Below the pieces are notes generated by a model. That model was given only the letters and a program-made list of their open reading frames with translations, did not search any database and was not told the DNA's origin. A program made the position numbers and the translations under genes. This document shows positions 53,408-58,334 of a stretch of DNA of 64,000 bases, piece by piece. Source of the DNA: an uncultured Candidatus Saccharibacteria bacterium (GTDB lineage: Bacteria; Patescibacteriota; Saccharimonadia; Saccharimonadales; Saccharimonadaceae); contig CAYMBV010000001.1 of assembly GCA_964388795.1 (NCBI GenBank), positions 238,701 through 302,700 of the forward strand, given 5' to 3'. Positions within the stretch are counted from its first letter, which is position 1, and each line of letters opens with the position of its first letter.

Positions 53408-54210
53408 AAAAAATCTTACATATAATGACACATACTATTGCCGCTGGGGCGATGCTGTTGTTTCTGGCATTGCCAGTCGCCTCTTTAGCGGTCGTCGCTT
53501 CTCCAGCCCTAACTTTTGCTGAAGATCCTCCGGCGGCTACAGGTGGCACAACCACCACTACTCCAGGTGCTTCGGGTACTCCGGCTACCTCAACTACCCC
53601 TGCCGACTGTGGCAGTGGTTTCCTTGGTATCCGCCCTTGGTACTACGGCCTAGCTGACCCTGCGGCTGATTGTGCGATTAAAGCACCTTCATCGAGCGAC
53701 TCTAACGCCCTTGGTACATTCATCTGGGCGATTGTTCTTAACTGTATCGACATTGCCCTCACTCTTGCTGCCTATGTTGCCGTCGTCTTTATTGTCTATG
53801 GTGGCTTCCTGTTTATTACTGGAGGTGGCGTGGCGACGCAAATTGAGCGAGCGCGTAAGACTATCTTTAATGCCGTCATTGGGCTAGTCATCGCCATGGG
53901 TGCGATTGGTATCGTTCGATTTGTCTTTAATGCCTTCGGGACGGCTGCATCTGGTGCAACGGCAAATGGTTTCCAGAAGTTTACAGCTGCCGAACTACTT
54001 CACAGTGGCCTTAATACCGTGTACTTCTTGGGAGGTCTTATTACGGTCCTCGTTATCATTATTGCCGGTATTAACTACGCTACTTCTGGTGGCGATTCAG
54101 GAAAAGTCTCAAAAGCAAAAAATACACTCACCTACGCCATTGTTGGTTTGGTGATAATCCTGGCAGCTTTTGCGATAACTAACTTTATAATGAGGAGCTT
54201 TGCACAATAA
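53404..54210 (+). CDS. Tandem two-domain VirB2/TrbC-like pilin
   Basis: Two pilin units: YGGFLFITGGG…ERARKTIFNAVIGL and IAGINYATSGGDSGKVSKAKNTLTYAIVGL. Confidence 0.85.
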   Translation: MKKILHIMTHTIAAGAMLLFLALPVASLAVVASPALTFAEDPPAATGGTTTTTPGASGTPATSTTPADCGSGFLGIRPWYYGLADPAADCAIKAPSSSDSNALGTFIWAIVLNCIDIALTLAAYVAVVFIVYGGFLFITGGGVATQIERARKTIFNAVIGLVIAMGAIGIVRFVFNAFGTAASGATANGFQKFTAAELLHSGLNTVYFLGGLITVLVIIIAGINYATSGGDSGKVSKAKNTLTYAIVGLVIILAAFAITNFIMRSFAQ

Positions 54211-54590
54211 TGAAACGACTAAAACTATTTATCGCCAGCCTAACGATCGCCGTTTTTGGCGCAGTAGCGGTTGTTCCTGCGACAACAACTTATGCACTTG
54301 ACCCACTAGGAGACATTTGTAGTTCTCCTGATAGCGCAAGCAACGAAGTATGTAAAAATAAAAACGATGACGCAATGAAGCTGATCGGGGTCGCAATTAA
54401 TACACTACTATTTATTGTCGGTGCCCTGGCGGTTGTCATGATTATCTATGGCGGTATCCGCTACACCACTTCGGCTGGTAATGCATCATCTGTCACTGCC
54501 GCAAAAAACACTATTCTCTATGCAGTCGTCGGTTTAGTGGTCGCCTTCTTGGCTTACGCGGTCGTCAACTGGGTATTGAAACTGTTTTAA
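54210..54590 (+). CDS. VirB2/TrbC-like pilin 3
   Basis: YGGIRYTTSAGNASSVTAAKNTILYAVVGL; Cys pair after the signal peptide. Confidence 0.9.
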   Translation: MKRLKLFIASLTIAVFGAVAVVPATTTYALDPLGDICSSPDSASNEVCKNKNDDAMKLIGVAINTLLFIVGALAVVMIIYGGIRYTTSAGNASSVTAAKNTILYAVVGLVVAFLAYAVVNWVLKLF

Positions 54591-54678: not shown

Positions 54679-55083
54679 ATGAAACAACTATTTACAAAAA
54701 AGCTGACTGCATTCGTCGCTGCTTTCATTTTCGCAGCAATGGCGTTGTTTGTTCCAGCACCTACTACTTACGCAGCAGACTGTAGCGCTGGTGTGGGCGG
54801 TGGCGCTAGTGCCGGTCTCGACTGTGCTAAGGGCGAAGACGTGCCTGACCAGCTGTTTGGCGAGGGATCAATCTTTACCACAGTGGTAAACGTGATGCTC
54901 TTTATCATCGGTGCGATTAGCGTTATTATGCTTATCTTCGGTGGTATTCGCTACACTACTTCGGCTGGTAACGCTGCAGCCGTCACCGCAGCTAAGAACA
55001 CTATCATGTACGCTATCATCGGTTTGGTCGTTGCCTTCCTGGCATTCGCAGTGGTGAACTGGGTACTTGGTCAGCTCGTCTAG
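54679..55083 (+). CDS. VirB2/TrbC-like pilin 4 (own promoter and AAAGGA RBS)
   Basis: FGGIRYTTSAGNAAAVTAAKNTIMYAIIGL; TGcTATAAC upstream; followed by a terminator. Confidence 0.9.
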   Translation: MKQLFTKKLTAFVAAFIFAAMALFVPAPTTYAADCSAGVGGGASAGLDCAKGEDVPDQLFGEGSIFTTVVNVMLFIIGAISVIMLIFGGIRYTTSAGNAAAVTAAKNTIMYAIIGLVVAFLAFAVVNWVLGQLV

Positions 55084-55734: not shown

Positions 55735-56427
55735 ATGGGTGGTATAAACGTAAAAAATACAATAGTTGAACGGGTACTACAAAACATAGCGCCCCACCAC
55801 TGTTACAGCTGTGGGAAAGTGGGTATCCTACTATGCCCACGTTGTAAAGATGACATCATGCATGAGCCATTTGTCGGCTGTTTCTTGTGCGGAAGGGCTT
55901 CTCGGGGTGGTGTTTGTGAGAACCACGAATCACCTATTGCGCGAACGTTCATCGTTAGTCAGCGGGAAGGTGTTTTACGGGCTATTATTGACGCATTGAA
56001 ATTTCACCATACGAAAGCTGCGGCAAAAGAGTTAGCACTATTGCTCCACGAGCGCCTGCCCGTTCTGCCCAACAAGACAATACTCGTACCAATCCCTACG
56101 GTGAGTTCACACATTCGCCAGCGAGGCTATGATCAGGTTGAGCTTATTGCACAGGAGCTTGCTTTACTACGCCACCTGCCGATACAACGACTACTGGGAC
56201 GAACCGGCCGTGCAACACTGCACACCCTGAACCGATCTGACCGACACCAAGCGGCCCAACAGGCTTTTGAGGCACTTGCGGACGAAGCAATGCCAGAAGA
56301 TACAATTATTCTTCTCCTTGATGACATTGTCACCACGGGTGCAACACTACAAAGTGCTGCTCGAGTTTTACGCCCGCTAGGCGTACCAATATGGATGGCG
56401 GCAATTGCCTACCAGCCTCTCGACTAA
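55735..56427 (+). CDS. comF: ComF family (Zn finger + phosphoribosyltransferase-like)
   Basis: CYSC…CPRC…CFLC; RQRGYDQ; LLLDDIVTTGATL. Confidence 0.92.
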   Translation: MGGINVKNTIVERVLQNIAPHHCYSCGKVGILLCPRCKDDIMHEPFVGCFLCGRASRGGVCENHESPIARTFIVSQREGVLRAIIDALKFHHTKAAAKELALLLHERLPVLPNKTILVPIPTVSSHIRQRGYDQVELIAQELALLRHLPIQRLLGRTGRATLHTLNRSDRHQAAQQAFEALADEAMPEDTIILLLDDIVTTGATLQSAARVLRPLGVPIWMAAIAYQPLD

Positions 56428-56464
56428 TCTGCGTTCATCTGTTAAAATAACCAAAGTCCAATAT

Positions 56465-56552
<88 letters not shown>

Positions 56553-56600
56553 ATTAAAAAAGCCCCGTAGGGCTCTTTTTATTTTCAGTTAACACTTTGA

Positions 56601-57002
56601 TTAGACGTCTGTAAACCCAGCCGACCCACCCGGCATTATAGTACCGAGAACAAAATTAATAGCGGCAAAGGCTAAGAAAGCAACAATAAGCCCGACAATC
56701 GCGTAAAGAATGGTGTTCTTTGCAGCGGTAACGGCTGCTGCATTACCGGCTGAAGTGGCGTAACGAAAACCACCGAAGATAACCATAATAACTGCTAAGG
56801 CGCCAACGGCAAACAAAAGAGTATTGGTAATGGTCGTAATAACGCCACCATCACCAAAGAGCGTTGCAGGTACACCGTTACCCCTTGCCGCTTCGGCACC
56901 TGCCTGAACACTTGATTGTGCGCCAACCGCGCTCACCCCAATAGTCAGCGCGACGGCGATTGAGAGTGTGAGGCTGGTGATAATTCCAAAAACTTTCTTC
57001 AT
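56601..57002 (-). CDS. VirB2/TrbC-like pilin 5 (separate, inverted, Cys-free)
   Basis: FGGFRYATSAGNAAAVTAAKNTILYAIVGL. Confidence 0.9.
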   Translation of the reverse strand: MKKVFGIITSLTLSIAVALTIGVSAVGAQSSVQAGAEAARGNGVPATLFGDGGVITTITNTLLFAVGALAVIMVIFGGFRYATSAGNAAAVTAAKNTILYAIVGLIVAFLAFAAINFVLGTIMPGGSAGFTDV

Positions 57003-57099
57003 GTATTTATGTACACCTATTACATAACTATATTGTTATTATAGCAAATAGTGGCGTAAAACGCTAGTCCCACCCCCTATTTTATGCTACAATCGTCTA

Positions 57100-57183
57100 A
57101 AGTTAGTACCCAAGTGGCTGCTGCGTGATACGCAAATAATGTGACGGAAACCGTCCTATTGGCAGTACGAAGCTCTAACATAC
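57100..57183 (+). ncRNA. tRNA-like structured element directly upstream of tRNA-Ser(GCT)
   Basis: 16-nt exact copy of the tRNA position 6-21 segment (57105-57120 = 57189-57204); closing stem GTTAG/CTAAC; two internal hairpins; starts ~6 nt after TGcTACAAT. Confidence 0.45.
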
Positions 57184-57276
57184 GGAGGAGTACCCAAGTG
57201 GCTGAAGGGGACGGTTTGCTAAATCGTTAGTCTGGGGAGACCTGGAGCGGGAGTTCGAATCTCCCCTCCTCCGCCA
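57184..57276 (+). tRNA. tRNA-Ser (GCT)
   Basis: GGAGGAG…ACGGT-TT-GCT-AA-ATCGT, long variable arm, GGGAGTTCGAATCTCCC, CCA. Confidence 0.97.
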
Positions 57277-57287
57277 ACATTATGAGA

Positions 57288-57315
57288 ATATCGTCCGAAA
57301 GGGCGATGTTTTTTT
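57288..57315 (+). terminator. Terminator after tRNA-Ser(GCT)
   Basis: ATATCGTCC-GAAA-GGGCGATGT followed by a T-run. Confidence 0.8.
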
Positions 57316-57346
57316 GCATAAACACCATGTTATACTAAAAAATAGC

Positions 57347-57910
57347 ATGGAAAATGAGACACAAGATAACCAGCAGCCCGATCTAGAGGTATTGCCAGAA
57401 ACAGAGGCGCAAATGGCTCCATCGTCGTTTGAGGATGACACACCAGACAACCCGCCCATTACCTGGTCTGCACAAGAGTATGTTCACCTCGATAGGGGCC
57501 CTGTGTGGTTTGTCGTCTTTGGCGTGGTTGTTTTAGGGTTAATCGCTCTTGATATTCTCTTTTTGCATACCTGGACACTTACCGCCCTGGTGATTGCTAT
57601 GGCCGTTGCGCTCATTATCTATATTCGCCGCCCACCTCGCACGCTGACGTACGCCCTTAGTCCTCGACAAGGGTTATATGTCGAGCAGCGTCTCTATACG
57701 TTTGATCAGTTTAAGTCATTCGGCATTATTAAAGACGGTGAAAATAATTCGATTATGCTGATTCCTCGAAAACGTTTCGCCCCTGGTGTGTCGGTTTTCT
57801 TTCCAGAAGACGCCGGTGAGCGGATTGTTGATATTCTTGGCGCTCGTCTTCCAATGGAAAACCTCAAGCTCGACGTTGTCGACATGATCGTACGAAAACT
57901 TCACCTCTAA
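57347..57910 (+). CDS. Conserved 2-TM membrane protein with C-terminal soluble domain
   Basis: Start corrected to ATG 57347 (TATACT 10 nt upstream); ITWSAQEY…W, two TMs, IVDILGARLP. Confidence 0.75.
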   Translation: MENETQDNQQPDLEVLPETEAQMAPSSFEDDTPDNPPITWSAQEYVHLDRGPVWFVVFGVVVLGLIALDILFLHTWTLTALVIAMAVALIIYIRRPPRTLTYALSPRQGLYVEQRLYTFDQFKSFGIIKDGENNSIMLIPRKRFAPGVSVFFPEDAGERIVDILGARLPMENLKLDVVDMIVRKLHL

Positions 57911-58072
57911 CCCTTGGTCTGTATCTAGATTTTTCCCTGTCGATGTGATACAATTGCCACTGTTCGCCTGATTTTTTCGGGCCGAAAGCACCTTCTAGTT
58001 ACAAAGATAGGCTCGTTGTGAAAAGGACATCGTTCTTTCTACAACGGGCGCTATCACCAAGTAACAGTATGT

Positions 58073-58149
58073 GCACCCGTAGCTCAGCTGGATAGAGCGT
58101 CGGCTTGCGGAGCCGAAGGCCATAGGTTCGAATCCTGTCGGGTGTACCA
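58073..58149 (+). tRNA. tRNA-Arg (GCG)
   Basis: GCACCCG…TCGGC-TT-GCG-GA-GCCGA…ATAGGTTCGAATCCTGT-CGGGTGT-ACCA. Confidence 0.95.
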
Positions 58150-58150
58150 T

Positions 58151-58184
58151 AGAAAAAAGACGAGTTGTAGCTCGTCTTTTTTCT
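58151..58184. terminator. Terminator after tRNA-Arg
   Basis: AGAAAAAAGACGAG-6 nt-CTCGTCTTTTTTCT, perfect 14-bp stem. Confidence 0.85.
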
Positions 58185-58246
58185 ATGATGGACTCGGTGA
58201 GTGCTACCCCCTGCTGACGCTGAAGCTTTGCTATAATAACTAAGCT

Positions 58247-58334
58247 GGAGAGATGCAGGAGTGGTTGAACTGGCCGCTCTCGAAAAGCGGTAAGGTGAAA
58301 GCCTTCGAGGGTTCGAATCCCTCTCTCTCCGCCA
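58247..58334 (+). tRNA. tRNA-Ser (CGA)
   Basis: GGAGAGA…CCGCT-CT-CGA-AA-AGCGG, variable arm, GGTTCGAATCC, CCA; TGcTATAAT just upstream. Confidence 0.97.

Follow-up and report, generated by a model that had tools for sequence, protein, structure and literature searches.

The 64,000-nucleotide (nt) stretch of Saccharibacteria DNA analyzed here (the window) carries, on its plus strand, a functional tRNA-Ser(GCU) gene with an encoded CCA end (57184–57276), which is recognized both by ARAGORN and by the Rfam tRNA model (RF00005, 53.9 bits), in agreement with an earlier reading of the bare sequence (the original prediction). The 84 nt in front of it are, in our judgment, probably an eroded member of a conserved family of Saccharibacteria modules that occupy tRNA 5′ leaders and are built from the adjoining tRNA itself. 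They include one copy of an exact 16-nt repeat, AGTACCCAAGTGGCTG, which had been noticed in that reading and indeed occurs identically at 57105–57120 and 57189–57204; by chance, ~0.0015 such repeat pairs within 100 nt are expected per 64 kb.

The module lies in a transcription unit on the plus strand. The predicted extended −10 element of this unit, TGcTACAAT (57085–57093), is well supported by comparison, as it is kept together with an upstream block, gctagtcccc...ctgtttta, in ~30 same-genus genomes, whether the module is present or absent; transcription would start near A57100. The next segment, cgtctaAAGTT (57094–57104), corresponds to c(g/a)ttcAAGTTgcac of relatives when upstream regions are aligned by eye, and we assign it as the remnant of a native short leader. 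It is followed by a copy of tRNA positions 6–21 (57105–57120), which covers the end of the acceptor strand, the 5′ strand of the D-stem and most of the D-loop, and then by the cassette that characterizes the family, CTGCGTGATACGCAAAT (57121–57137), which was assigned by pattern search with the consensus CTGCGTGAAACGYAAAT and can form the hairpin TGCG-TGATA-CGCA. A linker, AATGT, and a second hairpin, GACGG-AAA-CCGTC, occupy 57138–57155, as defined by the predicted fold and by pair counts. A degenerate remnant of an antisense arm, CCGTCCtaTTggCAG (57151–57165), was recognized by comparison with the units at loci L034, L035, L039, L072, L075 and L078, and comparison with intact units delimits a non-conserved tail (57166–57183). 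This tail ends in ATAC at tRNA positions −4 to −1, and ATAC or CAC before +1 is also frequent in module-free genomes. Beyond the tRNA, the unit ends in an intrinsic-terminator-like hairpin, ATCGTCC-GAAA-GGGCGAT followed by a T run (57290–57315), which was read from the sequence and is unlisted by a simple scan. A 14-codon open reading frame starting from an ATG inside the −10 element was rejected, as reading the sequences showed that the frame is not kept in the related genome G026.

The leader had been described as a tRNA-shaped RNA, and this description does not hold. ARAGORN reported 0 genes in 57085–57200 at relaxed thresholds from -ps90 down to -ps50 (50% of threshold), and cmscan at E ≤ 10 gave no tRNA match in 57100–57183. 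The two hairpins proposed for it, TGCG-TGATA-CGCA (57122–57134) and GACGG-AAA-CCGTC (57143–57155, with AATA/TATT flanks), are both present in the minimum-energy fold, in which the CAG/GCAG of the antisense remnant also pairs back to GCTG(C) at 57118–57122. The fold as a whole has an energy of −22.6 kcal/mol (z = −1.65 relative to shuffles) and is not unusually stable. The T-loop-like AG-TACGAAG-CT and the GTTAG/CTAAC closing stem, both part of the same description, have no counterpart in any relative. What stands is a tRNA-derived element in a tRNA 5′ leader; the tRNA-like shape does not.

Comparison with relatives clarifies where this element begins. The block gctagtcccc..ctgttttaTGcTACAATc..caAGTTgcac is kept across 36 same-genus genomes, in most of which the promoter block lies 6–40 nt from the tRNA +1, with no insert. 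Only G026, G001, G002 and G016 carry an insert like that of the window. The upstream copy in G026 matches tRNA nt 1–21 exactly and follows the native leader caagttgcac, and relative to its AAGTTGCACGGAGGAGTACCC the window reads AAGTT---------AGTACCC, with 9 nt (GCACGGAGG) deleted. Because this alignment shows AAGTT to be native and 9 nt to be gone, the proposed register with tRNA positions 1–21 is right for positions 6–21 and wrong for positions 1–5, which are conserved native leader (caAGTTgcac in relatives). As judged from these alignments, the 84 nt are present in some relatives and absent from others, and a direct repeat of the tRNA 5′ part bounds them; to this extent the proposal of a 68-bp insertion with a target duplication was correct. 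It is not, however, a simple insertion of fixed sequence, because the insert holds sense and antisense copies of the adjoining tRNA and belongs to a conserved family.

Sister genomes can differ in the insert. In a tree of the downstream DUF5673-like gene, which represents one short protein and has G002 and G016 outside it, the window genome (G000), G001 and G026 fall in one 8-member subclade, and the sisters of G000 and G026 (G017 and G036, respectively) are without the insert. These insert-free sisters imply repeated gain or, more simply, repeated precise loss via the direct repeat. No further copies of the module were found in the window genome, a 775-kb metagenome-assembled genome, as are most of the genomes compared.

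We characterized the family with a covariance model, R1, built from six first examples with the window sequence among the seeds, and with a pattern search based on the cassette; all family searches were made within the order. Among 401 genomes sampled across the order, R1 matched at full length in 16 (~4%), distributed over 7 bacterial families, and it also matched 41 of 301 genomes (22 of 95 genera) in the bacterial family to which the window belongs. The weak 20-bit matches that R1 also gives are ubiquitous and are merely the tRNA's own 5′ end. From these searches, 50 distinct tRNA-Ser units were collected. Tandem units occur, with two copies at a 111-nt period in G283 and two or three in G091. 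The pattern search with CTGCGTGAAACGYAAAT, allowing at most one mismatch, returned 46 matches, spread over 27 of 401 genomes, and the reversed control returned 1. Forty-three of the 46 lie inside tRNA-derived units (41 with the tRNA downstream and 2 cut by a contig end), and the remaining 3 are chance matches in coding sequence. All 43 true cassette units, including the 2 that are cut before a complete tRNA, lie 5′ of the copied tRNA and on the same strand, and the window copy does likewise. Its membership in the family rests on this independent search and on its anatomy.

The cassette is found at tRNA-Ser(GCU), Leu(UAG), Leu(CAG), Leu(GAG), Leu(UAA), Phe(GAA), Lys(UUU), Lys(CUU) and Arg(GCG), and in every tRNA type the arms that flank it are copied from the respective tRNA. 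A unit begins with a tRNA copy that runs from +1 to position 13, 17, 18 or 21, continues with the cassette and a 4–5-nt linker, and then presents a sense strand and its reverse complement. Cassette and linker stand in for part of the D-loop, and the sense strand equals the 3′ strand of the D-stem plus the start of the anticodon stem. Elsewhere in the family the copy begins at tRNA +1 and is identical at 21 of 21 positions in G026, G339, G392, G283 and others; several further members have acceptor copies that have decayed too. The antisense arm of the tRNA-Lys units (GTGCTCTAACCAGCYG) copies the native D-arm including GGTTA, the segment that the cassette replaces in the sense arm. Six or seven cassettes per genome are found in G339, G361 and G335, and the last of these has five near-identical tandem tRNA-Leu(UAG) units at a 97-nt period (L098, G335:C1:31500-32450, minus strand), each composed of the cassette and a tRNA-derived hairpin behind a copy of the first 13 nt of the tRNA. 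The acceptor copy, GTGCCACAG, is unlike the GCCGCGG of the tRNA in most L098 units. The conserved 3′ part of the unit differs between tRNA types, which indicates that the units are old lineages, one per type, rather than recent copies of one another.

Rfam 15 (4227 families) gave no match at the gathering score for the leader and, at E ≤ 10, only a chance-level match to snoR121 (15 bits relative to a 50-bit cut-off). No description of such a module was found in full-text literature searches. The DNA in front of the units holds recurrent features of its own in some genomes: the units at L044, L046, L051, L037 and L043, in different bacterial families, share an upstream motif, TTTGAGAGGAG...AAACTTGTTT(T/G)G, together with a long hairpin, and in G392 and G278 (L035 and L038) a conserved structured stretch, GAGCAGCC.GAG...GCGCGATGAGAAAAACCG..GGTTTGTCTCAT, stands before the unit and resembles the 3′ end of another stable RNA.

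The family data bear directly on another account of the locus, in which a single partial tandem duplication of tRNA-Ser has decayed neutrally or an integrative element has left an attL/attR scar after the deletion of its body. The direct repeat of the tRNA 5′ part, the lack of the unit in most relatives and the eroded state of the copy would all fit such an origin. Integrative elements as described, however, restore the 3′ part of a tRNA and leave the fragment an element length away, and no integrase lies nearby. The cassette, moreover, is not tRNA-derived and is common to units at eight other tRNA species and in seven bacterial families, and the helices covary. A one-off duplication or scar is contradicted by these data, and we consider it very improbable.

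At the level of the family, the element is neither absent from relatives nor unstructured, as covariation of its helices attests; the window copy is nevertheless eroded. Across the 50 tRNA-Ser units, hairpins 1 and 2 are 96.6% paired and 6 of 9 pairs change on both sides, values that 0 of 500 shuffles reach, in an alignment that was fitted to R1 and in which pairing is therefore favored. Hairpin 2 shows both-side changes in 4 of 5 pairs. Its 5′ strand equals tRNA positions 27–31 and its 3′ strand is the complement of these; the window's GACGG is also found in the tRNA at 57210–57214. In most tRNA-Ser units outside the window genus, the cassette itself pairs with an anti-cassette strand whose end directly precedes a conserved GAG, and the energies of this duplex are 3–6 standard deviations better than those of shuffles in about half of the units. 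With the register fixed, the variable cassette base Y pairs as U:A 12 times, as C:G 9 times and as U:G 2 times. The cells of the cassette:anti-cassette helix comprise 276 Watson–Crick, 45 G–U and 15 A–C combinations, and the excess of G–U over A–C indicates that it is the sense strand that folds, as RNA or as top-strand DNA. By inspection, the third hairpin, located after CAGGAG, shows compensatory variation. No reading frame is conserved: the AGGAG..GTG frame of intact units stops at many different places.

The arms of the module also change with the tRNA from which they are copied. In 6 of 6 lineages with GAUGG or GCGGC in the tRNA at the place of GACGG, the sense arm of the unit has changed alike. 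The antisense arm fully compensates in 4 of the 6 (G001, L068, L075 and L076); one mismatch is left in G002, and the stem of G016 is rearranged. Gene conversion is an unlikely source of this agreement, because the arm is only 5 nt long and lies between unrelated sequences. The pattern suggests selection on pairing among the three strands. In minimum-energy folds of the precursor, the leader is predicted to invade the tRNA at about positions 11–32 in 9 of 16 other units, with a gain of 4–11 kcal/mol relative to separate folds, and in 4 further units of the 16 the upstream acceptor copy is predicted to pair with the 3′ strand of the tRNA. The window precursor contains 1 cross pair (−60.9 versus −59.1 kcal/mol), and no tRNA pairing is predicted for it.

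The window copy retains the D-loop copy, the cassette, the linker, hairpin 2 and a trace of the antisense arm, and is without an acceptor copy, an anti-cassette, CAGGAG and the third hairpin. Its tRNA copy is identical at positions 6–21, with positions 1–5 gone through the 9-nt deletion relative to G026. The cassette, CTGCGTGATACGCAAAT, agrees with the consensus at 16 of 17 positions; the mismatch falls in the loop, where the T at the ninth base is absent from all other units collected. The antisense trace, CCGTCCtaTTggCAG, compares with CCGTCCCCTTCAGCC(A) in intact units, the reverse complement of tRNA positions 16–31. Pairing between the cassette and the tail is reduced to CUGC/GCAG (4 pairs, −5.7 kcal/mol, z = +0.27), compared with z values of −3 to −6 in intact units. 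The four other carriers in the genus are similarly reduced, with no good anti-cassette, CAGGAG or third hairpin. In an alignment of the five genus units with that of G041, 29 of the first 60 columns are invariant and the 3′ parts are unalignable; the same carriers are ~65–74% identical in a neighboring protein. The core formed by the cassette and hairpin 2 thus seems, from this comparison, to be under constraint and the remainder to have decayed, and its retention in five genus carriers suggests that it is probably still bound or used by something. The window copy may represent a natural "minimal" version of the module: 57121–57155, the block that survived erosion, is also invariant across the family and is thereby marked as the candidate functional heart.

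The same retention can be read in terms of a small RNA that acts in trans. RNase P would free the ~84-nt leader, whose cassette and D-arm-like part would then bind or titrate a factor, for example a nuclease, a modification enzyme or a phage protein. Functional RNAs that derive from leaders and spacers are known in other bacteria, and the persistence of the core in the genus while its flanks decay, together with the invariance of the cassette across tRNA types, which suggests one common ligand, would agree with such a role. A generic decoy, however, would have no need of customized tRNA-derived arms, and the leader fold has the unremarkable stability noted above (z = −1.65). We regard a trans-acting RNA as quite unlikely.

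We favor instead the view that the 84 nt are what remains of a tRNA-derived leader module, for which we propose the following scheme. An intact unit consists of a tRNA copy running from +1 into the D-arm; the 17-nt cassette, CUGCGUGAAACGYAAAU, which replaces part of the D-loop; a hairpin with a 5′ strand that repeats the D-stem 3′ and anticodon-stem 5′ strands of the tRNA and a 3′ strand that is antisense to them; an anti-cassette strand, with which a long irregular hairpin closes; the third hairpin; and a short tail that leads into the real tRNA. The window unit would be transcribed from the tRNA's own promoter, TGcTACAAT, with a start near 57100, and its leader would fold by itself into a small three-way junction before being removed by RNase P at 57183/57184; the window genome does encode an RNase P RNA (253 bits). 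For intact units, we tentatively favor a mechanism in which they would act in cis as a sense/antisense clamp on the 5′ half of the nascent tRNA, and the invariant cassette would serve as a recognition or docking site for a common factor.

Several observations weigh against this scheme or parts of it. The R1 score of the window unit, 80 bits, is not independent evidence, because a sequence that is one of the six R1 seeds scores highly by construction. With three elements of the family gone, the window copy may be functionally dead despite its kept core. The clamp relies on precursor folds computed from nearest-neighbor energies, which ignore the tertiary structure and the modifications of the tRNA. 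In the tRNA-Lys units, the sense arm and the antisense arm covary with each other and depart from the tRNA sequence, which favors an autonomous hairpin over pairing with the tRNA. Finally, the patchiness of the family, the repeated precise loss and the tandem amplification would fit a dispensable or selfish element equally well.

Such an element, selfish and templated by its target, is the main rival to the clamp. The 17-nt cassette and its hairpin would form a small non-autonomous element that moves as RNA or as single-stranded DNA, invades the D-arm region of tRNA genes and has its arms built from the target, and the window copy would be a dead, tolerated insertion, as its erosion would suggest. 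The presence of one cassette at no fewer than nine tRNA species, with up to 6–7 per genome, its patchy occurrence even between sister genomes and its arrays of up to 5 near-identical units would fit such an element. Other observations speak against it. The old, conserved 3′ module of each tRNA type argues against recent spread between types, the junction in the tRNA varies (after position 13, 17, 18 or 21) as it would not for a site-specific enzyme, the core is kept among vertically related members of the genus, and no recombinase lies near the locus. Nor could a mobilizing partner be assigned. Reverse transcriptase (RVT_1) is not associated with the cassette. Y1 transposase, which in a first set was present in 8 of 10 carriers against 1 of 9 non-carriers, was rejected as a partner when this difference was lost in a family-matched set (9 of 16 against 6 of 16); Y1 genes have no cassette-like flanks, and the Y1 domain PF01797 is absent from G000. 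We treat a selfish element as a real but less likely possibility.

The survey of Y1 genes also recorded a group of genes of ~180–210 amino acids (L205–L212; for example, G339:C4:83975-84589) that have a partial Y1_Tnp domain of IS200/RAYT-like type and are often multicopy in Saccharibacteria genomes. Their products begin with a conserved MPSRN.IK.Y....YYH.YNRG, their contexts differ, and no insertion sequence (IS) ends are obvious.

A further observation that has been counted in favor of a selfish element comes from phages. The exact 17-mer CTGCGTGAAACGYAAAT occurs in 20 viral contigs, 17 of which are Microviridae, most of them ~6.2–6.7 kb long, that encode the major head protein, the replication initiator and the pilot protein. 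In these phages, the 17-mer is always intergenic, after the capsid gene and on the coding strand, and is followed by TAAT and GCAAC-TTT-GTTGC. The block at L214 (3861–3895, minus strand) is an example, and L215–L232 are similar. The cassette and a hairpin thus stand, in the same register as in the tRNA units, in a conserved intergenic block of ~6.4-kb Microviridae, and this block is kept in two phage subgroups with differing upstream flanks. R1 aligns it to model positions 23–56 without gaps (20–21 bits), with the phage hairpin in the place of hairpin 2. The 17-mer alone, however, is not above chance: the reversed pattern gave 2 chance matches in the viral collection, and the forward matches represent only 2–3 independent clusters. 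No viral contig has a tRNA-type junction, and none of 37 Saccharibacteria genomes encodes the microvirus replication protein. We judge the resemblance to be probably accidental, with a modest chance that it is meaningful. If it is, the cassette and hairpin could be a cis-element common to Saccharibacteria tRNA leaders and Microviridae, and the modules could be either footprints of phage-type (rolling-circle or priming) machinery that writes target-derived arms or host mimics that engage the factor of the phage element. This explanation is unlikely in our estimate, but would, if true, amount to a new kind of tRNA-linked genetic element.

The module has housekeeping and pilin-type genes as neighbors. 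On its left, the shared control region is limited by the extended −10 element TGCTATAAT (57038–57046, minus strand) of a divergent gene (56601–57002) whose product matches Pfam T4SS_pilin, that is, a pilin of type IV secretion systems (T4SS); attatagcaaat is kept at this promoter site in ~25 relatives, and the element lies outside the module. A candidate minus-strand terminator, GACGGTTTCCGTC, was rejected, as it lies upstream of the pilin promoter and no minus-strand gene lies upstream of it. The six neighboring proteins that were scanned are a T4SS pilin, HSP20, a ComF-like phosphoribosyltransferase, a DUF5673-like protein, a HIT protein and a SPOUT methyltransferase, with valyl-tRNA synthetase, identified through relatives only, further downstream. 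None of the six is a recombinase or integrase or other element cargo, and the insert itself measures 68 nt.

Two arrangements in this region are worth recording. Three small T4SS-pilin-like paralogues (54210–54590 and 54679–55083 on the plus strand and 56601–57002 on the minus strand), of which the third was scanned against Pfam and the other two were called from their translations, bracket hsp20, the ComF-like phosphoribosyltransferase gene and tRNA-Ser(UGA); the third is the gene divergent from tRNA-Ser(GCU), with the conserved TGCTATAAT as its promoter. Within 1.9 kb (56465–58334) lie tRNA-Ser UGA, GCU and CGA and tRNA-Arg(GCG), all with encoded CCA and each apparently with its own promoter and terminator. 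The long open reading frames listed across these four tRNA genes (for example, 56377–56553 and 57995–58150) are artefacts.

Several known systems resemble the module in part. One of them is RtT RNA (Rfam RF00391) of the Escherichia coli tyrT operon, a set of tandem tRNA-linked repeats whose copy number changes by unequal recombination. RtT shares with the module tandem units that adjoin a tRNA gene, each with a piece of that tRNA, and co-transcription with it, which is predicted here; unlike the module, its units lie 3′ of the tRNA, carry the 3′ end of the tRNA and have neither a cross-tRNA cassette nor an antisense arm, and RtT has no Rfam match in the window leader. The tRNA fragments of integrative elements (attL/attR) likewise include a partial direct repeat that flanks an insert, an intact gene that is kept and a presence that varies, whereas the module is 60–110 nt long and non-coding, duplicates the 5′ part of the tRNA, holds target-derived sense and antisense strands and has no integrase nearby. 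The 3′ external transcribed spacer (3′ETS) of glyW-cysT-leuZ, a sponge of small RNAs, resembles it in belonging to a tRNA precursor without being tRNA, in being set free by processing and in that it may act alone; spacers of this type, however, are not known to be built from tRNA or to be modular between tRNA genes.

Short hairpin repeats with a conserved motif, strand-specific folding and patchy spread are also found in repetitive extragenic palindromic (REP) sequences and REPINs with their RAYT proteins and in IS200/IS605 mini-elements. Module units differ in occurring only at tRNA genes and in having target-copied arms, and there is no Y1 gene in the window genome and no association. In the non-canonical tRNA introns and split tRNA genes of archaea, the D-arm is interrupted by a short structured insert that is complementary to the exon, as in the module; here, an uninterrupted tRNA gene follows, so that no splicing is needed, the host is a bacterium, and no bulge-helix-bulge motif was seen, though no search aimed at one was made. 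On these comparisons, each of the nearest known systems has one trait of the module and misses the combination of a cassette with sense and antisense arms, placed 5′ of an intact tRNA, at many tRNA species. To our knowledge, an invariant cassette with target-derived sense/antisense arms has not been described for any leader, riboswitch, repeat or mobile element of bacteria.

Should this view of the family prove correct, a part of the tRNA precursors of Saccharibacteria is made out of the tRNA's own sequence, and the arms are customized at many tRNA genes. Such an arrangement could reveal a new control or quality check of tRNA maturation in ultra-small epibiotic bacteria or, alternatively, a new class of tRNA-homing element.

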